From assembly GCA_021817225.1 (NCBI GenBank), contig JAKAVR010000002.1, forward strand, positions 17,240 through 81,239: 64,000 nt of DNA. The letters run 5' to 3'. Under the pieces are notes generated by a model, which ran no database searches, had not been told where the DNA came from, and was given only the letters and a program-made list of their open reading frames with translations. The position numbers were made by a program, and so were the translations under genes. How positions within the stretch are numbered: position 1 is the first letter of the stretch; each line of letters starts with the position of its first letter. This DNA is from Thermoplasmata archaeon (GTDB lineage: Archaea; Thermoplasmatota; Thermoplasmata; Sysuiplasmatales; Sysuiplasmataceae). Positions 9,551-48,343 of this stretch are shown in pieces.

Positions 9551-10417
9551 GTGCCGAGAGCGGAATGGGGCCCTGAACGGGATGGTTTTGATGCGGTGAA
9601 ATGGACAGTTTCAATTACACCAGTCACTTTTCTGACAGTCAGCAATAAATATCAACCGCTTGATACAATCGGGGGTTACCCTTTGAATGCCGGAGTCAAA
9701 TGCAGTTCGACCATTGCAAGAATTCCCACTTACATAGAGGGTTTCGATGAAGCGCTCGAAGGCGGGATACCAAGCGGTTATATCGTGCTCATAGCCGGCT
9801 CTCCCGGAACGATGAAATCGACAGTGGCATGCAACATACTCTACAACAACGTGGTTAAGAGGGGGGCCAAATGCATCTATATGACGCTTGAGCAGAGCAG
9901 ACAGAGCCTTGAGACACAGTCGCTCCGCTTCGGGATAGATCTTGGAGCTGTAAGGGAGAGCATGCATGTTCTGGATTTTGCCGTTGTCAGGCGTAATCTC
10001 AAGCACCTCACCGCAGAGAAAAGCTGGATGGAAGTCTTCAAGATGTACATCGGCAATCTGAAGGAGAGCTTTCCGTTTGATTTCGTTGTTATTGATTCGC
10101 TTGATGTTCTGGAGATGGCAAGCGAGATAAAGAACAAGAGGGACGAGCTTTTCTATCTGTTTGAATGGCTCAGGGAACTGAACTCAACGATCCTTCTCAC
10201 CTGTGAAACGCCTGCGGGGAAGCTGATAGAGCTTGGCAACGATGTCTCCTACCTGGCTGACGGCATAATTTCCCTCTACATACAGGATGTGAGCGACGTC
10301 GAGGCACAGCGAAGGATCAGGTGCCTGAAGCTCAGGTCCACAAACCACAGCATGGACTCGTTTACATTCATAACAGAGGGAAACAGATTCATGGCCGTCA
10401 AGGCAATTTCAAAATAA
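9551..10417 (+). CDS. single-domain KaiC-like RecA-superfamily ATPase
   Basis: Walker A IAGSPGTMKST, Walker B FVVIDSLD, KaiC-like layout. The true start may be the in-frame TTG at 9683. Confidence 0.6.
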   Translation: MPRAEWGPERDGFDAVKWTVSITPVTFLTVSNKYQPLDTIGGYPLNAGVKCSSTIARIPTYIEGFDEALEGGIPSGYIVLIAGSPGTMKSTVACNILYNNVVKRGAKCIYMTLEQSRQSLETQSLRFGIDLGAVRESMHVLDFAVVRRNLKHLTAEKSWMEVFKMYIGNLKESFPFDFVVIDSLDVLEMASEIKNKRDELFYLFEWLRELNSTILLTCETPAGKLIELGNDVSYLADGIISLYIQDVSDVEAQRRIRCLKLRSTNHSMDSFTFITEGNRFMAVKAISK

Positions 10418-10551
10418 CCGGCAAATGGCCCGGAACAGCCTGCAGCATGTAAACAGGCACTGAGAGGCCCAGGCGCGAACTTGTGTGCTGCCCTGCAGAA
10501 AAAGAAGCGCACAGCGCATCAGTGAAAGTAAAATGGTTTGCGGTCAGCTCA

Positions 10552-10568
10552 TCTGACGTTGTTGTTGA
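10552..10568. repeat. 3'-flank half of the 16S processing stem (tctgacgttgttgttga)
   Basis: Perfect 17-nt reverse complement of 12128..12144; the two halves bracket the 16S gene. Confidence 0.6.
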
Positions 10569-10598
10569 CGATCTCTGCCATTGCACACTTGATATTCA

Positions 10599-12067
<1,469 letters not shown>

Positions 12068-12127
12068 CTACCACACTAGGTGGTTGGGCACTATTATTTT
12101 AGTGAATTGGCATAGAGACACTCACAT

Positions 12128-12144
12128 TCAACAACAACGTCAGA
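12128..12144. repeat. 5'-flank half of the 16S processing stem (tcaacaacaacgtcaga)
   Basis: Perfect reverse complement of 10552..10568. Partial complementarity (gatctct/agagatc) extends it further. Confidence 0.6.
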
Positions 12145-12429
12145 ATCGAGAGATCACGGCTGGCCGGGGTTCTCGACTCCCCACGAATGTGAACGGTCAC
12201 GAACAGACTTGTTTCACAGCAGGCGTATAGCCAGCTCTCAATCTCGCCGGTAATCCGTTCAGTAAAAGTACCATAGTTTCGACCAGTATATATGCGTTAT
12301 CCTGTGCCCCGATTCATTTGACTGCCCGGCCAATGCTCATGAGAAATCACGCAGCATCGGTGTTTGAGGGAACTTGATGAGGGAAAAGGGAGCTGATTCT
12401 GACAAAACACTTAACAGCAACCTTATACA

Positions 12430-15430: not shown

Positions 15431-16041
15431 CGACTCCCTATCACATCTTCCACGATACCAACTGCTTCTTCCTTGAGTCTTGATAATTCGGCATCCGCCC
15501 GTACATTGAACTTCCGACCGCTGTACAGTTTCATCTCAGCCGAATAATTAATCCTGACCTTCTTGAGAAAGGCTGCCTTTTCAAATGCCTTCAGTCTTGA
15601 GTCCCTTCCTGCTATCCGCGAGACTGCAATCCCTGGATCACTGTCCATGTATATGATCGCGTGCGGCAACAAACGGAAAGGCTCGTTCAGACACCTTATC
15701 CAGTCGATCATTTTGCCCCTCGCATATCCGGACTCAGCGCCCTGATAGGCGATCGTGGACATAAAATATCTGTCGCATATGACATGCCTGCCTGACCTGA
15801 GCCATTCCTTTATGACCTTTGTATGCGCAGCCCTGTCCGCTGTGAAAGCAAGCGCCTTTGCCCTGACAGAATCAATGTCCCTGTACGGAAGTAGTTCCTC
15901 GATGCTTCTGAGGAACCTGCTGTCGTACGGCTCCGAAGTGAAGACTGCTTTTCTGCCCAGCACACCGCATATGTGCCGGGCGACGGTCGTCTTTCCGCTT
16001 CCATCAATCCCTTCGAGAACAATGAACTTGCCGCCGCTCAT
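15427..16041 (-). CDS. tmk: thymidylate kinase
   Basis: P-loop LEGIDGSGKTT; 204 aa. A 4-nt overlap with coaBC. Confidence 0.8.
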   Translation of the reverse strand: MSGGKFIVLEGIDGSGKTTVARHICGVLGRKAVFTSEPYDSRFLRSIEELLPYRDIDSVRAKALAFTADRAAHTKVIKEWLRSGRHVICDRYFMSTIAYQGAESGYARGKMIDWIRCLNEPFRLLPHAIIYMDSDPGIAVSRIAGRDSRLKAFEKAAFLKKVRINYSAEMKLYSGRKFNVRADAELSRLKEEAVGIVEDVIGSR

Positions 16042-16093
16042 GCAGACTCGTCCCTGAATTTACTTACAGTATGGAATGAAAAAAACAAGGCAA

Positions 16094-17545
16094 TCATCTC
16101 CGGAAGTCCTGCCATCTGAAGATAAGTTCCCTTGCGGCTTTCACCTCATTCACCCGCCTGACAGGGGTGGAGTGGGGTGCAGAATGCAGTATTTCCGGTT
16201 CCTCCGCTGCAATGCTGCAGAAAAGCCCTGCGAGCATGTCAAGACTCTGCTTCGAAAGGTTCTCTGTTGGTTCGATCATAAGCGCTTCGCTCACAATGAG
16301 CGGAAAGTATATCGTCGGAGGATGAACACCGAAATCCATTAGCCTCTTTGCTATGTCAAGCGCCGTAATGCCCCGTCCTGACTTGAGCAGGTCCGCACTT
16401 GCGACAAATTCATGCTTCTTCAGTTTCTTGTATGGAATGTCATAGCTGCCGCTTATCTTCTTCATGAGGTAGTTCGAATTGAGGACCGCCTTCTCACTAT
16501 TCTGCTCCAGCCCGTCGGATCCGTTCATGAGTATGTATATGTAGGCGCGCAGCAGGACAGCGAAATTGCCCATGAATGAATGCACCTTGCCTATGCTCAG
16601 GGGCCTGTTGTAGTCGAGAGCGTAATTGCCTCCATCATTGACAATCCTCGGAACAGGCAAATACTTCTCAAGGAAAGACTTGACACCCACCGGCCCGGCT
16701 CCCGGGCCACCCCCGCCATGGGGAGTTGCGAAAGTCTTGTGCAGATTGAAATGAACAATGTCGAATCCCATCAGCCCTGGATTTGTCTTCCCTATGATCG
16801 CGTTCATGTTGGCGCCGTCATAGTAGAGCAGAGAACCTTTTGAATGGAGGACAGACGCTATTTCCCCCACCCTCTCCTCAAAGAGTCCGAGTGTATTCGG
16901 GTTGGTGAGCATGAAGGCTGCAACCCGCTCGTCAACGACCTTTTCAAGAAGCGCCACATCGACCATTCCATCTTTGGAAGGGAGCTCCACCACTTCGTAT
17001 CCGGCCATGGCTGCACTTGCAGGATTAGTGCCGTGTGCAGAATCAGGTATCAGTATCCTGTCCCTCTTCTCCCCCTTTTCATCGAAGTAAGCCTTGGTCA
17101 CAAGCATGCCTGTGAACTCACCCTGAGCACCACCTGCCGGCTGGAGTGTTACCGCGTCCATTCCCGAAATAGCCGCAAGCATCCTCTCGAGTTCGTACAT
17201 CAACTGAAGAGATCCCTGGATTGTTGAAGATGGCTGAAGGGGATGGATCCTCGATGCGCCTTCAAAGGAGGAAAGGTATTCCGCCACCTTTGGATTGTAT
17301 TTCATTGTGCATGAACCGAGCAGGTGAGGACCGTTGTCCACCGAGTAGCTCATCTGTGAGAGGTTTACATAATGCTGCATCAGGTACCTCTCCGAAATCG
17401 TTGGTATGTTGAGCGATTCCCTTTCCAGCCTTCCCTTGGGAATCGCCTTCTCCGCTGCAGGAACTTTCCTGTCGAAACCGAAAAGCTCGTCGTGCTTGAT
17501 TTCATCGAGCAGAGGCTCTTCCCAGATAGCCTGCGAGAACCTCAT
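16094..17545 (-). CDS. gcvPB: glycine dehydrogenase (decarboxylating) subunit 2
   Basis: PLP-lysine region FNLHKTFATPHGGGGPGAGP; 483 aa. Confidence 0.9.
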   Translation of the reverse strand: MRFSQAIWEEPLLDEIKHDELFGFDRKVPAAEKAIPKGRLERESLNIPTISERYLMQHYVNLSQMSYSVDNGPHLLGSCTMKYNPKVAEYLSSFEGASRIHPLQPSSTIQGSLQLMYELERMLAAISGMDAVTLQPAGGAQGEFTGMLVTKAYFDEKGEKRDRILIPDSAHGTNPASAAMAGYEVVELPSKDGMVDVALLEKVVDERVAAFMLTNPNTLGLFEERVGEIASVLHSKGSLLYYDGANMNAIIGKTNPGLMGFDIVHFNLHKTFATPHGGGGPGAGPVGVKSFLEKYLPVPRIVNDGGNYALDYNRPLSIGKVHSFMGNFAVLLRAYIYILMNGSDGLEQNSEKAVLNSNYLMKKISGSYDIPYKKLKKHEFVASADLLKSGRGITALDIAKRLMDFGVHPPTIYFPLIVSEALMIEPTENLSKQSLDMLAGLFCSIAAEEPEILHSAPHSTPVRRVNEVKAARELIFRWQDFRR

Positions 17546-18864
17546 GCAACCACATCCAGGACGTTCTTGAGTTCAACTATGTCATTCTCCCCCATTCTCT
17601 CATTCACGGCCCACACGGATGCATTGCCCAGCTCCGGGATGAACTGCCCGATCGGTAATCCGCCCAGGATGCCGTGCTCAACAAGTTCAGCCATCAGCCT
17701 TGCGGGCTCTTTCCTTGTCTGAATTGTGATCTCATTATATCCTGGCCCGTCGAACAGGACATTGTAATTCACTCCGTTGAGTTCGCTCATCGCGATCGAA
17801 CGCACTGACTCGGTCTTCCTCGCAACATCTGCGAGTCCTGAAGAGCCAAGTGAGGAGAGGTAGACGGAGGCTGCCACGGAAAGAAGCGTCTCATTGGTGC
17901 ATATGTTGGAAGTCGCCCGGGATCTCCTGATATGCTGCTCCCTCGCCTGAAGCGTGAGGCAGAAGGCCCTCTTTCCATCAGCATCAACCGTTGCCCCCAC
18001 AATGCGGCCCGGCATCTTTCTGACATGCTCCTTCCTGCAGGCGAAGACACCAAGGAGAGGCCCGCCGGTGTTCATGCCAATCCCCAGGGACTGCCCCTCG
18101 CCTATGACGATATCGGCGCCATAATCTCCAGGCGGCTTGACCGATGCAAGCGAGGCCGGGTTCACTCCCACCACCAGCGGCACGTCCCCCAGTGCTTCCT
18201 TGAGATCGATGACAGGCTCGTCATAGAGGCCGAAGAAGTTGGGCATCTCGGCGTAGACGCCACAGGCGTCCTTCTTCGCGTGGGACACCGCCTCATCAAG
18301 ATTGAAATGACCTGTTTTTCTGTCGAAACCGTATTCAACCAAGTTGATAGAGAGCCCCCTCAGGTAGTTTCGCAGAACAGACTTCTTCCATGGTGCAAGC
18401 GCCCTCGGAATCACAAAGGTGCCTCCCTCCCTGATCCTGCGGCACATGGTTGCAGCCTCGCCAAGAGCTGTCGAACCGTCATACATGGATGCGTTGACAG
18501 CATCCATCTGCGTAAGCTCGCTCATCAGACTCTGGTATTCGAATATAAGCTGCAGCAGTCCCTGGCTGAACTCCGCCTGGTATGGTGTATATGCAGTATA
18601 GAGCTCAGATCTCGACAACACCTGGCTGACTACCGAGGGGATAAAAATATCATATATTCCCGAGCCGAGAAAGCACTTCATCTCCGAGCAGTTCTTGTTC
18701 CTGCCTAGCATGGAGCGCACTTGCGAAACGACTTCCATTTCGCTGAGGCCGCTCCGCAGCTTCAGCCCGTTTGCCCTGAATGCGGCAGGTATGTCGGAAA
18801 ACAGCTCTTCAACATTGTCCAATCCAAGAAAGTTGAGCATTTCGCTACGTTCGTCGGAAGGCAT
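17542..18864 (-). CDS. gcvPA: glycine dehydrogenase (decarboxylating) subunit 1
   Basis: 440 aa P-protein N-terminal half, with a 4-nt overlap to gcvPB. Confidence 0.9.
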   Translation of the reverse strand: MPSDERSEMLNFLGLDNVEELFSDIPAAFRANGLKLRSGLSEMEVVSQVRSMLGRNKNCSEMKCFLGSGIYDIFIPSVVSQVLSRSELYTAYTPYQAEFSQGLLQLIFEYQSLMSELTQMDAVNASMYDGSTALGEAATMCRRIREGGTFVIPRALAPWKKSVLRNYLRGLSINLVEYGFDRKTGHFNLDEAVSHAKKDACGVYAEMPNFFGLYDEPVIDLKEALGDVPLVVGVNPASLASVKPPGDYGADIVIGEGQSLGIGMNTGGPLLGVFACRKEHVRKMPGRIVGATVDADGKRAFCLTLQAREQHIRRSRATSNICTNETLLSVAASVYLSSLGSSGLADVARKTESVRSIAMSELNGVNYNVLFDGPGYNEITIQTRKEPARLMAELVEHGILGGLPIGQFIPELGNASVWAVNERMGENDIVELKNVLDVVA

Positions 18865-18940
18865 CGTAATCCGTTTAGCACAGTGGACAATTTAATCTTT
18901 CCCCAAAAGGCGGTTTATTCAAGCAGGGCCGCCGTTGTGG

Positions 18941-19609
18941 TCAGTTGCCATCTATCCTGACAGCTACCTTCCTGTCCACTAGCACTCGAGAGTAAGCCTC
19001 CGGAAGAAAAGCAACATCCTCCTTTTTTACGTCAAACTCGCCGAACTCTGTTGCAAACTTGGGCACGTTTTCAACGAACCTGACCATGACGAACTTGGGT
19101 GCTTGGAGCTGTACGTCTTTCGGCGCTTCGTCCTCCGGCTCCTCAGCTCTCCGTTCCTCTACCACAATGGTTGCCTTGGAAGACAAGGGTCGCGGCGGAA
19201 TTGTCGAAGGTGTGTCTCTTGGAGGGTGCCCCGTGTGCAAGGAAGCATTCTCGTGCTCCCTTACCGCAGATATCATTCGTGTCAGAAACTCTTCCTCCTC
19301 GGCAGAGAGACCCTTCTGTACGGAAGTCTCCGACCTCCGCTGGCTAACAGCAAAGGTCGCCAGCTTCCGTGTCCTGAATTCCCATATCTGGTTGAGCAGC
19401 TTCCTTGCCTCCCTTATCTGAGTCTGAGCCGTATGCAGCAGCTCCCTGTTGGACGAACTTGCCTCTTCTTCCGCCTTCTCGAGTGATGCAATGTACTCTG
19501 CTGCCTTCCTGTAGAAATCATGCGGCAAGTCCACAAGAACATCCCCCCTGAGCGTCCTGTACACCCTTGTGATTTCGGCGTAATCCACTCTGTAATCTTC
19601 GGAAGACAT
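18941..19609 (-). CDS. gins51: GINS subunit Gins51 (Gins15), putative
   Basis: Helical A domain with LPHDFYRKAAEYI, an acidic linker, and a C-terminal beta B domain KFVMVRFVENVPKF...DVAFLPEAYSRVLVDRKVAV. This resembles the archaeal Gins51 pattern. Confidence 0.55.
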   Translation of the reverse strand: MSSEDYRVDYAEITRVYRTLRGDVLVDLPHDFYRKAAEYIASLEKAEEEASSSNRELLHTAQTQIREARKLLNQIWEFRTRKLATFAVSQRRSETSVQKGLSAEEEEFLTRMISAVREHENASLHTGHPPRDTPSTIPPRPLSSKATIVVEERRAEEPEDEAPKDVQLQAPKFVMVRFVENVPKFATEFGEFDVKKEDVAFLPEAYSRVLVDRKVAVRIDGN

Positions 19610-19619
19610 TGCTGTTGGA

Positions 19620-20093
19620 TTGGCAAGTCATTATAAGAAACCTTTTTTTATCAAAGCGGGATATCCTCATCAAGCCTGCGAAAGTGTAGAAATGAGCTCC
19701 ACAATTGACAGACTTGCAAGGATGGAGAAACTACTTGAGCACCTGGTGGAAGAGAGTGCTGAGGCACCCATAATTGTTGAGGGGAGGAACGACAAAGAGG
19801 CGCTCAGGAGACTAGGCATAGGTGGCATTGTGTTCATTGTCAATGGAAGGCACACTTTGTTTCAGATGTGCGAAGACATAAGCAGGGAACACAGGAAGGT
19901 CATACTGCTCACCGACTGGGACAGGAAGGGCGGCCAGATATGCAGCACGCTCTCCAAGGACTTTGCGGCCAACGGTGTCAGGACGGATGAAAAGATAAGG
20001 AGAAGCCTTTCATCGATAAGTTCGGGTGAAATAAAGGATGTTGAAAGCCTTCCACGGCTGGTGGAGAGGCTTAGAACCAAGGGAAAAAGGTGA
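19620..20093 (+). CDS. small Toprim-domain protein (COG1658-like)
   Basis: Toprim acidic motifs IIVEGRNDKEALRRLG and LLTDWDRKGGQI. The start may be the internal M at about 19692. Confidence 0.6.
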   Translation: MASHYKKPFFIKAGYPHQACESVEMSSTIDRLARMEKLLEHLVEESAEAPIIVEGRNDKEALRRLGIGGIVFIVNGRHTLFQMCEDISREHRKVILLTDWDRKGGQICSTLSKDFAANGVRTDEKIRRSLSSISSGEIKDVESLPRLVERLRTKGKR

Positions 20094-20175
20094 AAAACCG
20101 GTTCAAGGCGTGCGCCACGGAGGCGCTGACATCAGAAAGGTTATTATTCGACCTCCAGTATCCGCTCAAACTGAC

Positions 20176-20269
20176 GGGTCCGTAGCTCAGCTAGGTAGAG
20201 CAATCGGCTCTTAACCGAAAGGTCGAGGGTTCGAAAGACAACACATGTCCGAACATCCCTCCGGGCCCG
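20176..20269 (+). tRNA. tRNA-Lys (anticodon CUU) with a 20-nt non-canonical intron in the T-loop (about 20236..20255)
   Basis: Cloverleaf: acceptor GGGTCCG/CGGGCCC, D arm GCTC-loop-GAGC, anticodon loop CTCTTAA, T-stem GAGGG/CCCTC, discriminator G. The T-loop is interrupted by 20 nt that fold into a BHB (helix-bulge-helix-bulge-helix) motif; splicing restores the T-loop TTCGAAT. A T-rich tract follows. Confidence 0.75.
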
Positions 20270-20383
20270 CCTGACTGTTTTCTTTGTTTTTCAGCTGATG
20301 CACTGCCCGTGGTCTGTATTTCAGCACCACTCATGCAAGCTGGATTCGGGCCTTCCTGCGACAAATAATATATCACGTACTGC

Positions 20384-21193
20384 GTGAGTCGATCAGTTCT
20401 TGTAAAATCAAAGGGTGTGCACTTGAAGAAAATCGTCTTCGTAGGTACGGCCGGCGCAGGTAAATCTACACTCACGGCAGCTTTCGACGGATGGATGCAT
20501 GACAACGGGCATGATTGTGTAATAATGAATTTGGATCCGGGTGCAGAGGAACTTGCCTACGAACCGGACATCGACATAAGGGAATGGGTAAGACTGGAGG
20601 AGGTCATGAAGGACTATACACTTGGCCCTAACGGAGCGCAGATTGTTGCCTCCGATCTTCTTGCTCTCAACATGGACAAGGTGCTTGAACCGATAGAAAA
20701 ACTGGATGCGGATTACCTGCTCGTAGACACACCGGGCCAACTGGAGCTGTTTGCCTACAGGCAGTCTGGCAAGGTCGTGATAGACAGGCTCGGGACAGAC
20801 GAGACCGTACTCGCGTTTGTTACCGAACCTGCCATATGCAGATCACCAGGAGGCTTCATTTCATCAAGCATGCTCTTTGCGAGTGTGAACTTCAGGTTTG
20901 AGGTACCCGCACTTAACATAATTTCGAAAGTCGACCTCATCCCCGCCGAAGAGCTTGAGAAGATACTTCATTGGGCGGTGGAGGATATGAAACTCTACAA
21001 CGACCTGGTTGATGAAGATCTGAGGTCTGCGAAATCATTGACGATTGAACTGTTCAAGGCGCTGCAGCAGGTTTCGGCCTACACTGAAATGATACCCATA
21101 TCATCGAAGGAAAGAATTGGCATGGAGGACATATATTCGAAGGTGCAGGACATATTCTACGGCGGAGAGGATCTCGACAGACGCATGAGCTGA
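20384..21193 (+). CDS. GPN-loop GTPase
   Basis: P-loop VGTAGAGKSTL, GPN motif LGPNGAQIV, and DTPGQLELF. Confidence 0.7.
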   Translation: MSRSVLVKSKGVHLKKIVFVGTAGAGKSTLTAAFDGWMHDNGHDCVIMNLDPGAEELAYEPDIDIREWVRLEEVMKDYTLGPNGAQIVASDLLALNMDKVLEPIEKLDADYLLVDTPGQLELFAYRQSGKVVIDRLGTDETVLAFVTEPAICRSPGGFISSSMLFASVNFRFEVPALNIISKVDLIPAEELEKILHWAVEDMKLYNDLVDEDLRSAKSLTIELFKALQQVSAYTEMIPISSKERIGMEDIYSKVQDIFYGGEDLDRRMS

Positions 21194-21210
21194 GTAGAAG
21201 ATGCCGAACC

Positions 21211-21753
21211 TCACTCAGCGGCGGGAACTGCATCCGTCATGACGAATTCGATGTACTTCTTCCTTATGTTCAGTGCTTCTCCCAAGACAATGCCGGTCGT
21301 AAATGAGAGGATGGCGGACAAGGCAATCTCCACCGCCAGGTTGAATGGAATTGCAAACTCGATGACAATCCTTGCAATGTAGGATGCAATCCAGAATGCG
21401 AGCACATACATGTGTCTCCTGTAATACACCAGCCCGTTCCTGTAGAAGAAGGACGACTGGGTCGCATACAGATAACCGACCACTGCGGCGATGGGGACAA
21501 GTGCCAGTGTGGAAACAACATAAAGACTCACAGTGCCGAAACCGAAGACAGAAACCACGGTGAACAGGAGATAGAGGGCTGGCATCCGGAAGACCCTTCC
21601 GGTGCTGTATGCAATGCCGTTGAGGCCGAAGTAGATTCGCCTTGCCCCAAAAAGCACTATGATTCCAATCAAAAGGAGCAGGTACTCATCGGATTGTCCT
21701 GTAAAGAGTGGACTTCCCTGAGTCGAGACCGAAAGCAGTGCTCCTCCCAGCAT
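21211..21753 (-). CDS. hypothetical polytopic membrane protein
   Basis: 180 aa with about five hydrophobic helices; no recognisable motif. Confidence 0.35.
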   Translation of the reverse strand: MLGGALLSVSTQGSPLFTGQSDEYLLLLIGIIVLFGARRIYFGLNGIAYSTGRVFRMPALYLLFTVVSVFGFGTVSLYVVSTLALVPIAAVVGYLYATQSSFFYRNGLVYYRRHMYVLAFWIASYIARIVIEFAIPFNLAVEIALSAILSFTTGIVLGEALNIRKKYIEFVMTDAVPAAE

Positions 21754-21771
21754 GGGAATTGTATTCCTCCG

Positions 21772-23454
21772 TTATTCGACGTCACCTGTCATCATGACTG
21801 CACCCTTTGAAGCAGAGGTGACAAGCGATGCGTACTGCAGCAGTAGCCCGCCGCTATATTGCCGTTTTGGACGCTTCCATGCCTTCTTTCTCTTGGCCAG
21901 CATCTCACCCGAAATTTCGAAGTCGAGAGTTCCCTTGAGAGCATCGATTGTTATCACATCCCCGTCCCTCAAGAGTGCAATTGGCCCCCCTTCATAAGCC
22001 TCGGGCGAAACATGTCCGACCATGAGTCCTCTGGTGGCGCCTGAAAAACGGCCGTCTGTGATGAGTGCAACGCTATCGCCGAGTCCCTGCCCCACAATCG
22101 CTGCGGTCACCGAAAGCATTTCCCTCATACCGGGGCCCCCCTTCGGCCCTTCATACCTGATCACAACAATATCACCTGGTTCGACCGCCCTTGACATTAT
22201 TTCGCTGAAAGCCTCCTCCTCCGAGTCAAAGACCTTGGCCCTGCCCCTCATCTGCTGCGTCACAGACGCAGAGACCTTGAGAACTGCCCCTTCAGGCGCC
22301 AGGGATCCCCTAAGTATTTTGATGCCGCCCCTGGAGGCAATTGGCTCTGACAATGGCCTTATGACATGCTGGTCGGGGAGATTTGCCGAAGCCGACTCAA
22401 GCTCCTGCTTCAATGTCCTGCCTGATACAGTCATTGCGCCTCCGTTCAGAAGACCACCTTCAAGCAAACTCCTCATCAGGAGCGGAACACCACCGGCACG
22501 GTGCAGGTCCGCCATAACGTACCTTCCGCTTGGCTTCATGTCGACTATTTCTGGCACGCGATTCCCTATTGATTCGAAATCGTCTATTCCAAGGCTGATG
22601 CCTGCCTCATGAGCTATTGCGATGAGGTGTAGAACTGCATTGGTGGAACCGCCCGAGGCCATCAGGACTGTGATGGCATTCTCGAAAGACTCGAATGTAA
22701 GTATATCCCTGGGCTTGAGATCTGTTTCAACGAGATCCATCAATGCGGATCCTGTTTGAAATGCAAAGGAGCCCCTGGAACCGTCAACGGCGGGAGGAGA
22801 CGCGCTGCCTAGCAATGAAAGTCCGAGCGCTTCTGTCATCATCGCCATGGTGTTGGCGGTATAGAGTCCTCCGCATGCACCTGCGGTGGGGATGGCGCAG
22901 TCCTCCATCCTTTTCAGCTCTTCGAGAGTCATACCGCCTGCCGAGTACGAGCCCACTGCTTCATAGACATCGCCTATGGCAATATCCCTGCCATTGTAGC
23001 TGCCGGGCAGCGTGGTTCCGCTGTACATGACAATTGACGGTATGTTGAGCCTTGCCATCGCCATCATCATCCCCGGATTCGTTTTGTCGCAACCAGAGAG
23101 TGCCGCAAAACCATCATAACCGTGTGCGTTTACCGTAAGTTCAACAGTGTTGGCGACAAGTTCCCTGCTTACCAGGGAGTATTTCATCCCTTCTGTTCCC
23201 ATCGCAATGCCGTCAATAACGACCGGTGTGGTGAACAGTCTTGGCGTTCCACCACTGCTCCTGATTCCGTCCTTGACCTTCTGTCCCAGTGCAAGTGTGT
23301 GAATGTTGCAAGGTCCGGCTTCATTCCAGGCAGCGGCGACACCAACTATGGGTCTTGAAAGCTCTTCGTCTGTCAAGCCCATTGATTTCATGAATGCCCT
23401 GTTTGGAGCCCTTTCCGGACCCCCATAGACTGCTGAAGAACGCTTGTTAGGCAT
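21772..23454 (-). CDS. ilvD: dihydroxy-acid dehydratase
   Basis: IlvD/EDD family: [14 protein letters not shown] at the N-terminus and the CDKTNPG Fe-S ligand region. The likely start is the M at 23454 (the ORF runs to 23535). Confidence 0.85.
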
Positions 23455-23531
23455 GTTCGTTGACTCGACTACGTCTAATTTAACCTTGTGCAATATTGTC
23501 ATTTCAAACCGGGCTGCTTGCCGCGCCGGCC

Positions 23532-23945
23532 TCATACATGGAAGAAGACTGGAACTACTAACATTGCGAAGAAAAGATCAAAGAGGACGATGACACTCAA
23601 GACAACGTAGAGCCTGTTCTTGAGATAGGCAAACTCGGCGAGAGCAATCAGTACGATTGAAATGGGTGTGAATATGAGGACCCACAATCCTAGCGATATG
23701 AAGTAGAGACCGTTGAGATGGACGACCCCATTGAGTATACCTGTAAGGGGCAGGGAAGAGGAGTTAATTGAGAAACCGGATATGCCTGAGCCGGAACCGT
23801 AGCTTGCGATCTGATCGATGCTGTAGCCGTCAGCGCCATGCATCACAAATATCAGGGTGACACCCGTCGCAAGGAGAATGATGCTTACGACCACACCGAG
23901 TCTCAACACGGTGCTCAGAATGTCGTTGAATTCATACTTGGACAT
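23532..23945 (-). CDS. DUF1634-like membrane protein (TauE partner)
   Basis: 137 aa with 3-4 TM helices, overlapping the 3' end of the TauE gene. This is the usual TauE/DUF1634 pairing. Confidence 0.45.
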
Positions 23946-24912
23946 CTTCCGCCTCCTGTTTTCTAATCACCAGGAAGAGGCATGAAATCAGTATGACCGA
24001 AGTCAGAGCTGAAATGGCTAACCTGTCGGTGCCCGATGTTACAAACGAACCGTTGGATGCAAGCCCCTTCAGAAGCATTTCAACGCCGAGGAATGAAAGA
24101 ACCGCGAAGAAAAGCCACCTTATGTTCTTGTTTGACATCCTCACAAGTATCTTCGTACCAATGAAAGAACCAGCAAGCACTCCGATGGCAGTTGCGGCTG
24201 CGACGAAAACCTGTATGTATCCTGCATACCAGTAGATTGAACTGCCTGTGGCAGCGGTAATGCCAACCATGAAATTGCTTGTCGTGGTCGTTACCTTCAT
24301 GGGAAGATTCATGGCCCAGTCCATGCCCAGGACTTTCATCGCTCCGCTTCCGATGCCGAGCAGGCCCGAGATGATGCCCGCGAAAAGCATCACTATTTCG
24401 CCTGCCCACCACTTGACGCCATTATAGTGCACATCTTTTTTCAACCTGGCGTCGTAATATACCCCTGTCATCTGAAAAAGGCGTGTTGTCCAGTCCGGCT
24501 TCTTCAGCGGGGGTATTTCGTGCCTTCCCTTTTGTGCAGTAGGATAGAGCGAGAAGAGGAGCACTGCACCGAAGAGAACATAGATGATCCATTGCAGTCG
24601 GTGATCGTAGACATAGACTGCAAGTAGCGACCCTATGATGGCACCCACAGTTGTTGCAACCTCCAGACCGATGCCTATCTTGACGTTGGAAATCCGCTCC
24701 TTCACATAGGCGCTTGCAGAACCTGCAGAGGTTGCAATTGTAGAGATAAGGCTGGCGCCTGTGGCGTAGATTATTGGTATTCCGTAGAATATTGTCAGCA
24801 GTGGAACAAGGACGGTTCCCCCGCCAAGGCCGGTCAGTGAGCCGAGAAGACCTGCGGAGAAGCCCCCGACCACAATCAAAAGGAAATTGAAAAGTGCAAT
24901 CAAGGGGGTCAT
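23932..24912 (-). CDS. TauE/SafE-family (DUF81) anion exporter
   Basis: 326 aa polytopic. The Gly-rich signature GSLTGLGGGTVLVPLL recurs in both halves. Confidence 0.7.
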   Translation of the reverse strand: MTPLIALFNFLLIVVGGFSAGLLGSLTGLGGGTVLVPLLTIFYGIPIIYATGASLISTIATSAGSASAYVKERISNVKIGIGLEVATTVGAIIGSLLAVYVYDHRLQWIIYVLFGAVLLFSLYPTAQKGRHEIPPLKKPDWTTRLFQMTGVYYDARLKKDVHYNGVKWWAGEIVMLFAGIISGLLGIGSGAMKVLGMDWAMNLPMKVTTTTSNFMVGITAATGSSIYWYAGYIQVFVAAATAIGVLAGSFIGTKILVRMSNKNIRWLFFAVLSFLGVEMLLKGLASNGSFVTSGTDRLAISALTSVILISCLFLVIRKQEAEDVQV

Positions 24913-24989
24913 TGATGTGTGCTCAAAACATCATTGTATAAATCATTGACTGAAAACAGTCACACCTGCGATCTGCGGACAGCAAAGGG

Positions 24990-26282
24990 TCACAGAAACG
25001 AGAGTTTGCCCCTGATTATTGTCTGCTCCCTCGAATGACCAACCGAAATTATCTTCGCCTTTACGCCGAGAAACTCCTCGATGAATGAAATGTACCGTCT
25101 CGACTCGACTGGAAGGTCTGTCCATCCGTGGACTCCCTCATCAAGCTGTTCACCCCATCCATGCAATTCCCTGTATACGGGCTGAACATTCTCCAGCACT
25201 TTGACCGATTGAGGATAGTGCTTGAGCTTCTCACCGTTGTACCTATAGGATGTTGCGATCTTCAGGCGGTCTATGCCTGACAGGACATCAAGCTTTGTGA
25301 GTGCAATCGCAGTGGCACCGGAGAGACTGATGGCGTACTTGGCAGCAAATAGATCGAGCCAACCGCACCTTCTTCTTCTGCCCGTCGTTGTGCCTACCTC
25401 CATGCCTTTGAGCGCCAGGTGTTCACCCACATCGTCGCTGAGTTCTGTCGGGAATGGGCCGCCACCGACTCTTGTCGAATATGCCTTGAGCACACCGATT
25501 ACACCCAGTCTGTGATTGGGGTCCATCCCGCTGCCTGTGAATGCATTTCCAGTCACAATGTTCGAGGAAGTGACATACGGATAGTTGCCATGGTCAATAT
25601 CGAGCATCAGGCCGTGGGCACCTTCGAATATCACATTCTTCCTCTTTGAAGCCATGTCGTTGATAAGGTGAGAGGTGTCCGTTATGTACGGCGAGAGAGC
25701 CCTGGACCACTCCGCAAGCTTCTTCATAAGCGAGTCCGCATCGACCTCAAGCTCACCTGAGAGGGCGGACGCGTATGCCTTCTTCATTCTTACAGCCATG
25801 TCGACCTTCGGACCAAGAGACTCCACGTCGAGAAGATCGCCGGCCCTGAAACCTATCCTTGAGGCCTTGTCCGAATAGCATGGCCCTATTCCCTTCCTGG
25901 TGGTGCCCACAGCACTTCCTCCCTTGAATGACTCCTCAAGTCCGTCAATCTGCTTGTGGTACGGCATAACGAGATGTGCCCTGTCGCTGATGTGAAATTT
26001 GCTGATGCGATAGCCCCTGTCGGCCAGTGTTTTCAACTCTGCCATGAGTTCGTCTGGATCAACCGCAGAGCCGTTTGCGATAATGCCAGTCACTTTCTTG
26101 TGAAGAACACCCGACGGCACCTGGTGGAATTTGAATGTCTGTTTGCCGAACTCCACCGTATGACCCGCATTTGCGCCTCCCTGGAACCTTACGACGCAAT
26201 CGGCAGAATCCGAAACAAAATCAGTGATCTTTCCCTTCCCCTCATCTCCCCACTGGAGCCCCACTATAGCTATAGCAGGCAT
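24990..26282 (-). CDS. purA: adenylosuccinate synthetase
   Basis: P-loop GLQWGDEGKGKITD directly after the M at 26282. The ORF's 5' extension to 26480 is Arg-rich junk. Confidence 0.9.
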   Translation of the reverse strand: MPAIAIVGLQWGDEGKGKITDFVSDSADCVVRFQGGANAGHTVEFGKQTFKFHQVPSGVLHKKVTGIIANGSAVDPDELMAELKTLADRGYRISKFHISDRAHLVMPYHKQIDGLEESFKGGSAVGTTRKGIGPCYSDKASRIGFRAGDLLDVESLGPKVDMAVRMKKAYASALSGELEVDADSLMKKLAEWSRALSPYITDTSHLINDMASKRKNVIFEGAHGLMLDIDHGNYPYVTSSNIVTGNAFTGSGMDPNHRLGVIGVLKAYSTRVGGGPFPTELSDDVGEHLALKGMEVGTTTGRRRRCGWLDLFAAKYAISLSGATAIALTKLDVLSGIDRLKIATSYRYNGEKLKHYPQSVKVLENVQPVYRELHGWGEQLDEGVHGWTDLPVESRRYISFIEEFLGVKAKIISVGHSREQTIIRGKLSFL

Positions 26283-26394
26283 GAGTGCCCATTTGTAATG
26301 TAGTATAAAAGAATAAGCCGCCATGCCGCACTGTCGGCGGCGACGTGGGGCGCCTGCCATATTATTATCGCTGGTATGCAAATACGCATACCGT

Positions 26395-26799
26395 ATGTCG
26401 CTTCGAAAAACAGACATCAATTCATCACCCAAGGCGGTCGTGGATGCAATGTGCCAGTCAATCACCGGGAAAGGACTCACGCTTTATTCGGTCATAGACC
26501 ACCGCAGTGAAATCGAGGAGGCGGCCGCAACTCCCTTCACAGCCTACACGATAACATTCGGCAGTCCCGCACTTTCCTCAATGTTGCTTGCCAAGAACAT
26601 AGAGCTCTCCGTCGACATACCCCTCAGGACATCCGTTGTTTCAAGACAGAACGGATGCAGGTTGATATGGAGGGACATGCACTCCCTGCTGAGCGACTTT
26701 CAGGTTGCCAATTCCGAAAATACAGCCAATCTTGTAAACGGCATTATTGAAGATGTGATAAACGGTGCGCGTGCCATTTGCGACAGTTCTGAGAGATAA
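26395..26799 (+). CDS. DUF302-family protein (second paralog)
   Basis: ITGKGLTLYSVIDHRSEIEE...TITFGSPALSSMLL...LPLRTSVVSRQNGCRLIW resembles the DUF302 pattern. An ATTATTAT box lies about 27 nt upstream of the ATG at 26395. Confidence 0.5.
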   Translation: MSLRKTDINSSPKAVVDAMCQSITGKGLTLYSVIDHRSEIEEAAATPFTAYTITFGSPALSSMLLAKNIELSVDIPLRTSVVSRQNGCRLIWRDMHSLLSDFQVANSENTANLVNGIIEDVINGARAICDSSER

Positions 26800-26960
26800 G
26801 GCGACCCGTGAGCTGTCTGGCTGCCATGGAGTTTTCCACTGCCCGCCCTGTTCCCGTGCTGCAAGGCAATTCGACCGCTTTCGGGCACCTCTCCCTTCTC
26901 CCCTGCTTAAATAAGCGCTCAGGGCTGGTTACATACATACCCAGACGGGAGCAGAAGCAC

Positions 26961-27665
26961 ATGTTGAAGTTCGAAAGCAATATGGCAAGGGCCACACCAG
27001 ATTCTCTAACGGTAATCGAGGGGCGAAACCGTAACAGTTGCATAATAAAGAGGGGAGAAAATACATTCATAGGCGGGCCCTCTTCGGTGACAGGCAAGCT
27101 TCTGCATTCAATCGTTTTCAGATCCCTTGCTGTTTCTGATGGAATAGTGCTCTGGATAGACGGCGGCAATTCGTTTGACCCGTACAGGATTTCGGAACTG
27201 GCTGAAAGATGCGGATACGATGGAAGAAAAATGCTCTCCAGGATAAGGATTGCCAGGGCTTTCACCGCCCATCAGATGGAGGCCATTGCACGTTCGGCCT
27301 CAAAGGAGGCCCGTGGCAACAGCATATCGATCCTTGTTGTATCATCTGTTGCGGAACTGTTCACCGGCGAAGTCGGATGGAAGGAAGGAATGGACCTCCT
27401 GAAGAGCACTGTTGGAAATCTTGGAAAACTTGCAGAGAACTGCGGCGCATGGTCCGTTATGACATCGGGCATATCCGTGAGTTCCAGCACTGAAATGGAA
27501 AGGATAGTGGATGAGAACTTCGCAAGAGTGGTGAACGTTGAGCTGGAAAATGAAGATCTTTACCTTGAAAGCGACGGACAGGTTCTGGCAGTAAGCAGGT
27601 GGAGCGAGAAAAGGCACCAGAGATCCATACTTGAGTTCACAGGCAGAGGTGATCGAGCTGGGTAG
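26961..27665 (+). CDS. RadB/RecA-superfamily-like protein with a degenerate Walker A
   Basis: FIGGPSSVTGKLLHSI sits in the Walker A position but is non-canonical. IVLWIDGGNSFDPYRISELAE resembles the RadB block VVYIDTEGGFSPERL. Start uncertain (M at 26961 or 26982; the ORF is drawn from 26808). Confidence 0.45.
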   Translation: MLKFESNMARATPDSLTVIEGRNRNSCIIKRGENTFIGGPSSVTGKLLHSIVFRSLAVSDGIVLWIDGGNSFDPYRISELAERCGYDGRKMLSRIRIARAFTAHQMEAIARSASKEARGNSISILVVSSVAELFTGEVGWKEGMDLLKSTVGNLGKLAENCGAWSVMTSGISVSSSTEMERIVDENFARVVNVELENEDLYLESDGQVLAVSRWSEKRHQRSILEFTGRGDRAG

Positions 27666-27903
27666 AACTGTTCCAACGTTCAGGACAGAAATAGAGAGGA
27701 TCGTTTCACGCTGGGAGAAATTCGGCAGCGCCCTCAGAAAGGAGGAGAAGACGTACCTTGAAAGAGTGATAGCAAAGGCAAGGCATCATTCATCCGCCTC
27801 CACATATGCCGCCCTCGTCAATCCCGTGGAGGGCATGATGCTTTCCATAATGATAGAGCAGGAAAAGGAACTAGATCTTCTCAAACGGAAGTACCATTTC
27901 TAA
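27631..27903 (+). CDS. hypothetical small helical protein
   Basis: 90 aa. It overlaps the 3' end of the RadB-like gene and ends 15 nt before the PolB gene. Confidence 0.3.
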   Translation: MSSQAEVIELGRTVPTFRTEIERIVSRWEKFGSALRKEEKTYLERVIAKARHHSSASTYAALVNPVEGMMLSIMIEQEKELDLLKRKYHF

Positions 27904-27917
27904 GAGGCAGCGGGTGG

Positions 27918-30059
27918 ATGGAAGGGTGGATAATAGATGCCTACACGGATGTGAAAAGGAACAGCGTTGTCCTGTGGGTAAAAGGAAATGAAGTAAGGAA
28001 GTTTGAATTCGGATACAGACCAACATTTCACGTCGGCGGAAACGCTGCTTCGCTGGATGAAATTGCACGAAGGCTTGACAAAATAGAGAGCGTAGACGAG
28101 AGGAGGGTTGTAAGAAAGACCGCGCCTCAAATGCAGCTTGCTGATATGCTTGAGATAAGCACGGGTGACTTTCACACATACCGCAAGATTGCAGAAGGCA
28201 TATATGCGCTTGGAGACCACACAGGCTACACCGTATACGATGCAGACATACCCATAGAGCAGCGCTTCATGCTTGATAACGGCATATTTCCGCTTGCGTT
28301 TATCTCGGCTGGAAATGGCGAGATTAAATGCCTTGATTCTCTGAATGAGATATATTATGAGATGCCGCCCCTCAATACGGCCCATCTTGACATAACATTT
28401 GAAAAGAACCCGCCTGCAAAAGACACGCGAATAGGAAGCATAGCAATAGACAGCGATATCATCGAGGATGATGAGGAGAGAATGCTTCTGGAGGCGGCGA
28501 GAATACTGAGTTCGAAGAATTACGATCTGATACTCACAAATGGTGGTGATGCCTTTGCAATAAGGCAGATGTACAGGCGTGCCGCGTGCCTGGATCTTGA
28601 TGAATTCACGCTTGGAAGGGAGGTGGGGATGAGGGGGTCGTATGCGGCAAAGAGCTACATGAGCTACGGCAGGATATTCTACAAGCCGTCACCCGCGATG
28701 CTCATGGGCAGATTGCACATAGATACACGCAACTCGTTCCTGCATATAGAGTCTGGACTGGAGGGGCTTGCAGAAATATCCAGGCTTTCCTACATGGGAC
28801 TGCAGCAGCTTTCCAGACTTTCCCCGGGCACTGCCATAAGCAGCATGGAGACAATGGAGGCGCTGAGGCAGAACGGTTCTGTGCCATGGAAGAAGAACAG
28901 GCCAGAGATGTTCAAAACCGCAGAGGAGCTAGTAGAATCTGACAGGGGAGGACTCATATTCACGCCTGTAACAGGCTTTCACAGCAATGTCTTCGGTCTT
29001 GATTTCTCATCCCTGTACCCGGCCATAATGAAAAAGGAAAACATATCCGTGGACACGCTCAACTGCAAGTGCTGCGCAGTGGATGGAAGGAATGTTCCCG
29101 GACTCGGATATCACTTCTGCGTACGCAGGACAGGACTTATACCATCCGTCATAGGCAACCTGATAATGAGGCGCAGAAAGTACAAAACAATGAGCGATGA
29201 ATTTGCAGCAAAAAGGAGGAATGCGCTCAAATGGGTTCTTGTCACATCCTTTGGCTATACGGGGTTCAGGAATGCCAAATTTGGAAGCATAGAATGCCAC
29301 GAATCAATAAATGCATTCGGCAGGGATATCCTCCTGCATGCAGCGCGAAGGGCGGAAGAGATGGGATTCAGGGTGCTACATGGCATAGTCGATTCACTCT
29401 GGATACAGGGCGAGGGGGACGCTTTAGAGTATGCCGAAAGGATAGGGAGTGAGACTGGAATACCATTTGAGGTCGAAGGCAGGTATCGCTGGATTGTTTT
29501 CCTGAACAACAAGGGGGACGGAGAGGGCAGCCTCAACAAATACTACGGCCTCTTCGATGATGGCACCTACAAGCTCAGGGGGATTGAACTCAGGAGATCC
29601 GATTCTCCCGAAATAGTCAGGTTTGCCCAGAACATAATGCTTGAATACCTGCGCGATTCGACCGACGGGAAAGATTTTGTTCAGAGGGCAAGGAACGGAA
29701 TAATGAGGGTGGCGGAACTCGTGAAGGATGTAAAAAGAGGGAGCTATCCCGTCGAAGACATGATCATAACAAAGCGTGTTTCAAAGACGCTTGATGAATA
29801 CAGGAGCAGCAACGAGCGGCAAATCGCACTGCTGCGACTCAGGGAAGCAGGGATGGAGGTTAGCGCAGGGGAAGTCATCAGATATGTTGTTGCGGCAGCA
29901 AGAAAGGACAGAATCATTGTTCCCGAACAGCTTCTTACGGACAACGATGCCTATGAGGCTGGATACTACTCCAGGCTGATTGCACGTGCGCTTGCTACGA
30001 TGCTCTTTCCCTTTGGCTACGATGAAAAAAAGATTCTTTCAATGTTCAGGTATTCTTGA
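27918..30059 (+). CDS. family-B DNA polymerase, PolB2-like (exonuclease motifs degenerate)
   Basis: PolB N-terminal signature WIIDAYTDVKRNSVVLWVKG...YRPTFHV. Motif A DFSSLYPAIM (29001..29030). Motif B is divergent (KWVLVTSFGYTGF). Motif C reads HGIVDSLW (29379..29402) instead of YGDTDS. Exo I is DIT rather than DIE, and Exo II is NGGDAFA rather than NGDSFD. At 713 aa it is shorter than replicative PolB. Confidence 0.75.
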   Translation: MEGWIIDAYTDVKRNSVVLWVKGNEVRKFEFGYRPTFHVGGNAASLDEIARRLDKIESVDERRVVRKTAPQMQLADMLEISTGDFHTYRKIAEGIYALGDHTGYTVYDADIPIEQRFMLDNGIFPLAFISAGNGEIKCLDSLNEIYYEMPPLNTAHLDITFEKNPPAKDTRIGSIAIDSDIIEDDEERMLLEAARILSSKNYDLILTNGGDAFAIRQMYRRAACLDLDEFTLGREVGMRGSYAAKSYMSYGRIFYKPSPAMLMGRLHIDTRNSFLHIESGLEGLAEISRLSYMGLQQLSRLSPGTAISSMETMEALRQNGSVPWKKNRPEMFKTAEELVESDRGGLIFTPVTGFHSNVFGLDFSSLYPAIMKKENISVDTLNCKCCAVDGRNVPGLGYHFCVRRTGLIPSVIGNLIMRRRKYKTMSDEFAAKRRNALKWVLVTSFGYTGFRNAKFGSIECHESINAFGRDILLHAARRAEEMGFRVLHGIVDSLWIQGEGDALEYAERIGSETGIPFEVEGRYRWIVFLNNKGDGEGSLNKYYGLFDDGTYKLRGIELRRSDSPEIVRFAQNIMLEYLRDSTDGKDFVQRARNGIMRVAELVKDVKRGSYPVEDMIITKRVSKTLDEYRSSNERQIALLRLREAGMEVSAGEVIRYVVAAARKDRIIVPEQLLTDNDAYEAGYYSRLIARALATMLFPFGYDEKKILSMFRYS

Positions 30060-43144: not shown

Positions 43145-43600
43145 TCAGGAGCCAAGCACAATTGATAACCTTCTCAGCTTGCTCCGTATGTTTCTATCTA
43201 GTCTGACGAATTGCCAGCGCATTAGCACCCTGCCATATCTAGATACGAAGCTGACGCTGCATGTTCTCATCAATCTGTCATAAGTGCGAGTCTCGATTCT
43301 GAGTCCTGAAACATAATCGAGGCTGATGCTCTTTCCCCTGAGCAGCACGCTGCTCGTGACGCGACTGTCGGAAACTGCATATTTCGTGCCCAACCACACA
43401 GCCACCGGAAACAAGAACACAACGCAGCAGACCATCCATTCGGCAGGGCGCAGCAGGGATGGGAATGCAAGTCCGAATTCAGACACAACGCTGTTTACCA
43501 TCATAAACTGGAAACCAAAGAGAAGGGATAGAAGCAGCCCTGCAATCGCATAGGGACTCAAACATGGTCGTGCATGAATGTCATGGGCAACCTTCATCAC
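43145..43600 (-). CDS. small membrane protein with a bPH_2 domain (YdbS-like); last gene of the T4SS-like operon
   Basis: Two N-terminal TM helices, then YAVSDSRVTSSVLLRGKSISLDYVSGLRIETRTYDRLMRTCSVSF. Its start overlaps the stop of the upstream gene by 4 nt. Confidence 0.5.
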   Translation of the reverse strand: MMKVAHDIHARPCLSPYAIAGLLLSLLFGFQFMMVNSVVSEFGLAFPSLLRPAEWMVCCVVFLFPVAVWLGTKYAVSDSRVTSSVLLRGKSISLDYVSGLRIETRTYDRLMRTCSVSFVSRYGRVLMRWQFVRLDRNIRSKLRRLSIVLGS

Positions 43601-47756: not shown

Positions 47757-47765
47757 GATAACAAC

Positions 47766-47870: not shown

Positions 47871-47872
47871 CC

Positions 47873-48223: not shown

Positions 48224-48343
48224 CTGCTCACCATCCCCGCCACAAACCAGAAAATCTGACCTGTGCCGGAACGATTATTGGACCTGCTGTTCTAATTAAA
48301 AAGCCTGACTGATACATGTAACAGGTTAACAACTTTTTTCGGC

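Follow-up and report, generated by a model that had tools for sequence, protein, structure and literature searches.

How can a tRNA gene that carries 27 nt in place of the 7-nt T-loop give rise to an ordinary tRNA? The question is raised by a locus in the window, the 64,000-nt stretch of archaeal DNA analysed here, where a gene for tRNA-Lys(CUU) on the plus strand (20176..20269) reads GGGTCCG TA GCTC AGCTAGGTA GAGC A ATCGG CTCTTAA CCGAA AGGTC GAGGG (27 nt) CCCTC CGGGCCC G. A first-pass annotation had proposed that the extra length is a 20-nt intron between T-loop positions 59 and 60, held in a BHB motif. Based on folding, in silico splicing and comparison with relatives, we conclude with high confidence that this is a functional gene for tRNA-Lys(CUU), with an intron, in a Thermoplasmata archaeon that is close to MAG YF1.bin95 and shows collinearity with a Ca. 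Sysuiplasmataceae MAG. The features of the locus are collected in Table 1.

Table 1. Features of the tRNA-Lys(CUU) locus, in window coordinates
Feature	Position	Strand	Basis or remark
Putative archaeal promoter	20134..20148	+	Purine-rich BRE-like stretch agaaagg, then TATA-like box; read from sequence
TATA-like box TTATTATT	20141-20148	+	Centre ~31 nt upstream of tRNA position 1
5' exon, tRNA positions 1-59 (acceptor 5' strand, D-arm, anticodon arm, variable loop, T-stem 5' strand, T-loop nt 54-59)	20176..20235	+	ARAGORN after splicing; Rfam; alignment
Anticodon CTT (Lys)	20210..20212	+	ARAGORN, sequence position 35
T-stem 5' strand GAGGG (exon-side helix h)	20225..20229	+	Pairs with 20257-20261; MFE fold
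Central helix, exonic strand TTCG (T-loop nt 54-57)	20230..20233	+	Pairs with intronic CGAA 20250-20253; MFE fold
5' bulge AAA (A58, A59, first intron nt)	20234..20236	+	Predicted 5' splice site 20235/20236; MFE fold
20-nt intron AGACAACACATGTCCGAACA	20236..20255	+	Between T-loop positions 59 and 60; deletion gives a detectable tRNA
Intron-side hairpin h' (GACA 20237-20240 / TGTC 20246-20249, 5-nt loop ACACA 20241-20245)	20237..20249	+	MFE fold
Central helix, intronic strand CGAA	20250..20253	+	MFE fold, alignment
3' bulge CAT (last two intron nt and T60)	20254..20256	+	Predicted 3' splice site 20255/20256; MFE fold
3' exon (T60, T-stem CCCTC 20257-20261, acceptor 3' strand CGGGCCC, discriminator G73)	20256..20269	+	
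T-rich tract TTTTCTTTGTTTTT	20278..20291	+	Read from sequence

The gene escapes standard tools. ARAGORN, run over the whole 64-kb window in default, intron (-i) and low-threshold (-ps) modes, reports no tRNA at the locus, and the first two modes give none elsewhere in the window either; the intron search that had been suggested as a check on the annotation thus does not find the gene. Against the Rfam tRNA model the unspliced gene reaches 25 bits, where the threshold is 29, and aligns over 20176-20233 only, with the T-arm skipped; neither gathering nor E-value thresholds bring out any further tRNA-like signal in the 64-kb window. A 'tRNA-Thr(cgt)' with an 85-nt intron, placed by ARAGORN -ps at 45533-45713, lies inside the ORF of a 567-aa ATPase (44286-45989) and was rejected as a false positive. 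Once 20236..20255 are deleted, ARAGORN calls a 74-nt tRNA-Lys(ctt) with the T-loop TTCGAAT, which bears out both the identity and the restored loop proposed in the first-pass annotation. When the collected sequences are spliced in silico by the BHB cut rule, 50 of 53 yield an ARAGORN tRNA-Lys(ctt). With the Rfam tRNA model, alleles of relatives that lack the intron reach 71.9 bits, and the intron-bearing relatives give no match above threshold. As neither ARAGORN nor the Rfam model sees the gene, tRNA-Lys(CUU) will be reported missing from these Thermoplasmata MAGs unless a BHB-aware finder is used, and statements on their tRNA complement and completeness are affected. tRNAscan-SE 2.0 looks for non-canonical introns by default (PMC8450103).

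The spliced cloverleaf, as drawn by ARAGORN, has the anticodon CUU, 7-nt anticodon and T loops, and G18, G19, T54, T55, C56 and A58 all in place. It had been described as canonical, which is true overall apart from a U4-G69 wobble, common to the eight closest sequences, and a mismatched top pair of the anticodon stem, A27/A43 (20203/20219). The same mismatch is present in all seven closest relatives and in L060, and the Methanomassiliicoccales-type genes have A-U at this pair (alignment columns 28-44); A27/A43 is a lineage-wide mismatch within an otherwise invariant tRNA. CCA is absent from the gene, G73 being followed by CCT.

What structure does the insert impose on the T-arm? The ViennaRNA MFE fold of 20225-20261 is (((((((((...((((.....))))))))...))))), at -11.2 kcal/mol, that is, a 5-bp T-stem, a 4-bp TTCG/CGAA helix, two 3-nt bulges and a 4-bp GACA/UGUC helix. 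This is a strict hBHBh' motif as defined in PMC7714728 and PMC3239211. The central helix, which by that definition has exactly 4 bp, is TTCG/CGAA, and it is bordered on opposite strands by the two 3-nt bulges AAA and CAT; the exon-side helix h, for which at least two Watson-Crick pairs are demanded, has five (GAGGG/CCCTC), and the intron-side helix h', with the same minimum, has four (GACA/TGTC). Removal at the bulges leaves a standard tRNA, the 74-nt tRNA-Lys(ctt) with T-loop TTCGAAT that ARAGORN recognizes. As every sequence-level hBHBh' feature listed in PMC7714728 is present, the insert is an intron of known type. The T-stem, the central helix and the bulges AAA and CAT fall exactly where the first-pass annotation had placed them; the inner helix starts at 20237, but it comprises four pairs closed by a 5-nt loop instead of the three pairs and 7-nt loop of the earlier description, the fourth pair being backed by covariation. 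The MFE structure of the full-length precursor misfolds the D and anticodon arms. Such misfolding is usual for tRNA transcripts, and folding of a single sequence is by itself no proof of a cloverleaf. By chance the motif arises in 0.17% of 2,000,000 random 20-mers set in the same register, when a 4-bp central helix (G-U included) and at least 3 inner bp are counted as a match; the comparative evidence for the motif is much stronger than this figure.

Relatives were collected in two ways. A species-representative genome collection was scanned, for tRNA-Lys(CUU) only, with a pattern combining Lys-CTT and TTCGAA-N(8-38)-CGAANNNCCC, a spacing that puts intron-less alleles outside its reach. It returned 40 loci, of which L013, L021 and L040 were discarded as intron-less tRNAs with a chance CGAANNNCCC downstream. 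Of those left, about 20 carry the label Thermoplasmata, Methanomassiliicoccales or Sysuiplasmataceae, and the remainder come from Micrarchaeota, Asgard lineages (Promethearchaeota, Hermod-, Hod- and Odinarchaeota), one Thermoproteus and one Methanosarcinales MAG. A metagenome scan with the exact exons of the window gave no match, and a slightly degenerate pattern that allowed 0-30 nt at the intron site gave 38, further intron-bearing copies included. The search pattern demanded the TTCG/CGAA helix and the 3-nt spacing on its 3' side and left free the inner helix, the loop, the identity of the 5' bulge and the complementarity of the T-stem. The conservation of TTCG/CGAA is therefore partly imposed by the scans, and the covariation of the inner helix is not.

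The genes of the closest relatives are orthologous to that of the window. Over the 5.1 kb from 15917 to 21036 the window shares 92.6% identity with contig L011 of 'Thermoplasmata archaeon YF1.bin95', in which the exons are the same and the intron differs at two loop positions only, and 20136-28154 are collinear over 8 kb, at 74% identity, with a contig of 'Candidatus Sysuiplasmataceae archaeon' (L043), a family placed within Thermoplasmata in the NCBI taxonomy. In both, the tRNA occupies the same intergenic slot as in the window, where its neighbours are the genes for a small Toprim-domain protein and a GPN-loop ATPase. Six genomes (L011, L015, L028, L033, L037 and L043) have exons identical to those of the window, set in flanks that are 66-93% identical; a second group, labelled Methanomassiliicoccales, has three to four exon differences from the window. 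The flanking DNA of more distant relatives falls to 66-75% identity and the exons stay invariant. By this measure of divergence, the exons are evidently under purifying selection relative to the flanks and the intron. The conservation of the intron across the Thermoplasmata clade makes it an orthologous, lineage-wide feature, not a one-off. Two intron-less alleles, L073 and L081, were obtained in the metagenome scan, and their exons are identical to those of Methanomassiliicoccales-type intron-bearing genes. As L081 has a neighbouring gene in common with the intron-bearing loci (73-78% identity), the intron is both present and absent at an orthologous locus. Sequences upstream are also conserved: the 45 nt before the gene are identical in L011 and near-identical in L015 and L028, a promoter-like AAAGG-TTATTATT element ~31 nt upstream recurs among relatives, and Methanomassiliicoccales-type loci have CTTTATTTA at the same distance. 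From its make-up we infer that the BRE/TATA-like stretch acts as promoter, and the T-rich tract downstream is likely an archaeal oligo-T terminator.

Is the motif itself conserved, and where exactly does the intron begin and end? We aligned 21 distinct Thermoplasmata pre-tRNAs (alignment A1), scored on the cloverleaf plus the BHB. In this alignment 96.9% of cells are paired. Its covariation scores 0.149, where shuffles give 0.072 ± 0.008 and none of 500 reaches the observed value; slid registers all drop to 25-58% paired. The 3-4-3 spacing is present in 21 of 21 sequences. The five pairs of the T-stem and those of the central helix are 100% paired in all 21, with one change from U-A to U-G in the central helix of L062. 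The exonic helices, being essentially invariant, are uninformative on covariation. The inner helix, in contrast, changes on both sides in five of six aligned pairs (A-U/G-C, U-A/C-G, U-A/A-U/C-G, C-G/U-A/G-C), with sequences that include GACA/TGTC, GGC/GCC, GATCT/AGATC and GGTTT/AAACC; it has 3-6 pairs in 20 of the 21 sequences and, by our own count, 2 contiguous pairs in L051. The loop of the intron varies freely among relatives. Taken together, the pattern of substitutions shows that selection acts on the motif and not on its sequence. The boundaries are equally sharp. The 5' exon is invariant in the 21 relatives except at columns 4, 21, 44 and 45; at the 5' junction, A59 (column 60) never varies and the first intron nt (column 61) is A or T; at the 3' junction, the intron ends in CA, TA, TC or CG (columns 82-83) and T60 (column 84) is again constant. 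Variable columns thus start at the first intron nucleotide and stop at the last, at 20235/20236 and 20255/20256 in the window, the limits given in the first-pass annotation, and a 59/60 cut yields TTCGAAT in every relative. Comparison with tRNA-Lys genes of relatives, which that annotation had called for, has accordingly brought out the same intron at the same site with compensatory changes.

We propose the following course of events, in which the enzymes, the chemistry and the positions of the cuts within the bulges are borrowed from established knowledge of archaeal tRNA splicing. The gene would be transcribed from the BRE/TATA-type promoter ~30 nt upstream, with termination at the T-tract. 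In the precursor, T-loop nucleotides 54-57 (UUCG) would pair with CGAA of the insert, and a strict 3-4-3 hBHBh' would replace the T-loop. The geometry copies the canonical case exactly, with 53/61 taking the part of 31/39 and 59/60 that of 37/38; given this local identity, a strict-motif enzyme should suffice. EndA is expected to cut after the second nucleotide of each bulge, at 20235/20236 and 20255/20256, leaving 2',3'-cyclic phosphate and 5'-OH ends, whereupon an RtcB-type ligase would join the exons and probably circularise the 20-mer. RNase P, RNase Z and a CCA-adding enzyme, the last needed as CCA is not encoded, would finish the ends to give a 74+3-nt tRNA with the T-loop UUCGAAU. The precursor has U54, U55, C56 and G57 base-paired, so that formation of the T-loop/D-loop elbow and modification of the T-loop would presumably await splicing.

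Could the same data be read differently? The splice junctions might lie one nucleotide upstream, at 58/59. In the window this reading is indistinguishable by product, as the first and last intron nucleotides are both A and the earlier cut leaves the same TTCGAAT, but the shifted cut gives TTCGACT in L033 (3' bulge TCT) and TTCGAGT in L060 (CGT). Moreover, exon invariance stops exactly at column 60 and restarts at column 84, and the BHB rule of cutting after the second bulge nucleotide is established and fits the 37/38 geometry, so that we judge junctions at 58/59 to be highly unlikely. Slighter still is the chance of a dead tRNA gene in which an insertion left the 20 nt behind as a scar. Failure of standard finders to see the gene and the A27/A43 mismatch in the anticodon stem would fit a pseudogene; exons that are invariant where the flanks of more distant relatives have drifted, a conserved promoter and an insert whose structure is maintained through compensatory changes would not, nor would an insert so placed that taking it out leaves every relative with a perfect 7-nt T-loop. 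We give least credence to a mature tRNA that retains the insert as an enlarged, structured T-arm, a reading with nothing specific in its favour; the invariant exons, the conserved promoter and the covariation contradict it as they do the pseudogene. With U54, U55, C56 and G57 paired, the elbow between T-loop and D-loop could not form; what is conserved is the very motif on which the endonuclease acts, 3-4-3 with a helix on either side, and alleles without the insert have identical exons.

A further idea would add to splicing at 59/60 rather than replace it, namely that the intron is kept for a function, either breaking up the T-arm/3'-end sequence, an attachment site for viral and plasmid integrases in archaea, or ordering the maturation of the tRNA, as elbow and T-loop modifications have to wait for splicing. 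In its favour, the intron has persisted at a syntenic position in genomes with 26-33% DNA difference and occurs in ~20 species, and the same site is filled in tRNA-Lys(CUU) of four other lineages; a protective role for disrupted tRNA genes has been suggested (Randau and Soll 2008, in the form in which PMC4033280 cites it). On the other hand, intron-less alleles with identical exons exist, one of them at the syntenic locus (L081), and the intron is thus dispensable in close relatives; no integrated element or integrase lies beside the gene in the window, and structure alone is conserved in the intron, as expected of a pure splicing signal. Nor can the recurrence be called a 'hot spot', the scan having been restricted to tRNA-Lys(CUU). 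We regard such an added function as unlikely.

Splicing at 59/60 by a strict-motif enzyme would have implications for the link between introns and endonucleases. In euryarchaea with alpha4 or alpha'2 endonucleases introns are described at 37/38 only (PMC4090602), and Korarchaeum is given as the only alpha2-bearing archaeon with non-canonical introns (PMC4033280). The first-pass annotation took introns outside the anticodon loop to be frequent in Thermoproteota but not in other archaea, in agreement with these two sources and with PMC8450103. Cluster II euryarchaea, including Thermoplasmatales, are said to encode exclusively alpha'2 EndA (PMC5829648), and alpha4 and alpha'2 enzymes demand a strict 3-4-3 hBHBh' motif (PMC3239211). 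Among the 67 non-overlapping ORFs of at least 90 aa in the window, Pfam identifies no EndA, RtcB or CCA-adding enzyme, and tblastn with an approximate M. jannaschii EndA query did not find EndA in the fetched loci; its one weak match (E = 0.04, in L034) is antisense to the ORF of an HTH protein and was rejected. It is conceivable, although we hold it to be somewhat short of probable, that a Thermoplasmata clade of Sysuiplasmatales-like and Methanomassiliicoccales-like members stably keeps a non-canonical intron while having only the strict alpha'2 endonuclease, against the rule that alpha4/alpha'2 goes with 37/38 only. If so, the position of an intron would be limited only by the ability to form a perfect 3-4-3 motif, for which the T-arm would qualify as the geometric twin of the anticodon arm, and the presence/absence alleles with identical exons would offer a natural system for the gain and loss of BHB introns. 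An alpha'2 enzyme here would make the locus an exception to the stated correlation, yet one consistent with the strict-motif requirement of that enzyme. What the locus adds is a covariation-backed strict BHB intron outside the anticodon loop where reviews deny such introns; it is relevant to the proposal that the position of introns and the architecture of the endonuclease have co-evolved, and involves no new mechanism. A 59/60 intron has apparently not been described in this lineage before: we found no description of it in the literature on tRNA introns in Methanomassiliicoccales/Thermoplasmata that we covered, a coverage that is incomplete and leaves novelty unproven.

How does this intron compare with known systems? 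There is ample precedent for BHB introns at non-canonical positions. In local architecture our intron is identical to the canonical 37/38 intron, with a 5-bp stem, the first four loop nucleotides in a 4-bp helix with the 3' part of the intron, bulges of 3 nt, and six of the seven loop nucleotides ahead of the intron; presumably it also shares the enzyme, the cut rule and the ligation. It differs in lying in the T-arm instead of the anticodon arm; it thus masks the T-loop, with its role in the elbow and its modifications, rather than the anticodon loop, and is invisible to finders that model 37/38 introns only. The site itself has a precedent in ARMAN-2 (Ca. Micrarchaeum acidiphilum), whose pre-tRNA-Pro(GGG) and pre-tRNA-Cys(GCA) have introns at 59/60 (PMC3239211; PMC5829648). 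These are short as well, and a protein endonuclease removes them; that of Pro(GGG) is also a strict hBHBh', and the Cys intron has been cleaved in vitro. They occur in other tRNAs and in another phylum (DPANN) rather than in a Thermoplasmata host, and ARMAN-2 has a broad-specificity epsilon2 enzyme and a relaxed hBH motif in its Cys intron, in contrast to the strict motif of the window. Our genome scan places 59/60 introns also in tRNA-Lys(CUU) of the Micrarchaeota MAGs L004, L012, L022 and L026.

BHB-type introns outside the anticodon loop are likewise a feature of Thermoproteales, Thaumarchaeota and Asgard archaea with an (alpha-beta)2 EndA, and an insert at the same tRNA-Lys(CUU) site is found in one Thermoproteus MAG (L032) and in about nine Asgard-labelled or Asgard-looking MAGs (L006, L009, L018, L020, L027, L029, L035, L038, L039 and L042 are among those with the insert). 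The (alpha-beta)2 lineages have many such introns, often several per gene and often with relaxed motifs, and enzymes with a specificity loop (PMC5829648). Here, in contrast, we see a single strict motif and nothing further of this sort in the 64 kb of the window or in the related loci (~550 kb): when both strands were scanned for T-arm BHBs of the 59/60 type, whatever the tRNA, only tRNA-Lys genes came up, except for L032, whose spliced product is misnamed by ARAGORN, probably owing to a second disruption upstream. Leaving L035 aside, the Asgard-labelled or Asgard-looking MAGs listed above have near-identical tRNA-Lys(CUU) exons (GGGCTATTGGCGCAGGCAGGTAGCGC...) with a 29-31-nt insert at 59/60; L020 is labelled only 'uncultured archaeon' and the other eight are labelled Asgard. 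By a simple count, the inner helix of several of these inserts does not start directly at the bulge. Their motifs may be of the relaxed kind, which would fit the (alpha-beta)2 enzyme that Asgard archaea are reported to have (PMC5829648). At the tRNA-Lys(CTT) loci L010, L012, L032, L046, L050, L053, L057, L067, L070 and L071, from other lineages, a hairpin-containing stretch, for example GTGTCCTTCGAGGACAGCCAAAAGC, replaces tRNA-Lys(CUU) upstream of position ~22-26. This points to an additional intron in the D-arm or close to it, or to a split gene, in which case L010, L012 and L032 would have two disruptions, the one at 59/60 included.

Pre-rRNA BHB motifs belong to the same class of endonuclease substrate outside the anticodon loop, but they form in long-range helices that flank the rRNAs and lead to circular pre-rRNAs. 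On its minus strand the window holds a complete 16S rRNA gene of archaeal type (10600-12067; 1496 bits), and Rfam detects no 23S, no 5S and no tRNA besides tRNA-Lys in the 64 kb. Unlinked rRNA genes are typical of Thermoplasmatales and relatives (PMC4153887), and the lone 16S gene thus fits a Thermoplasmata origin. Its flanks (12068-12330 and 10330-10599, minus strand) form a perfect 17-bp processing stem, UCUGACGUUGUUGUUGA / UCAACAACAACGUCAGA, which continues past an asymmetric internal loop (~9 nt versus 3 nt) into UCUC/GAGA and UGCCA/UGGCA; no strict 3-4-3 BHB is evident in this stem.

Elsewhere in the window, a gene for a synthetase of the TrpRS/TyrRS family lies at 54187-55305 (plus strand). 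In Haloferax, endA is directly upstream of trpS1 (PMC7714728), a linkage that is absent here, the upstream ORF being divergent (53009-54115, minus strand) and a weak radical-SAM match. The 567-aa ATPase at 44286-45989 (minus strand) is of the AAA_10/TraG-P-loop/HerA-like type and lies in a region, 43145-48259, that may be a mobile-element or defence island; the three or four ORFs that follow it (45986-46636, 46620-47756, 47855-48259 and 43145-43600) have no Pfam match. The ORF at 7188-8168 (plus strand) combines PP-loop ATPase and TtuA N-terminal LIM-type zinc-finger domains in Pfam and is, by this domain content, a predicted TtuA/NcsA-like tRNA 2-thiolation enzyme. The T-loop, masked here by the intron, is where enzymes of the TtuA type act, thiolating its position 54.
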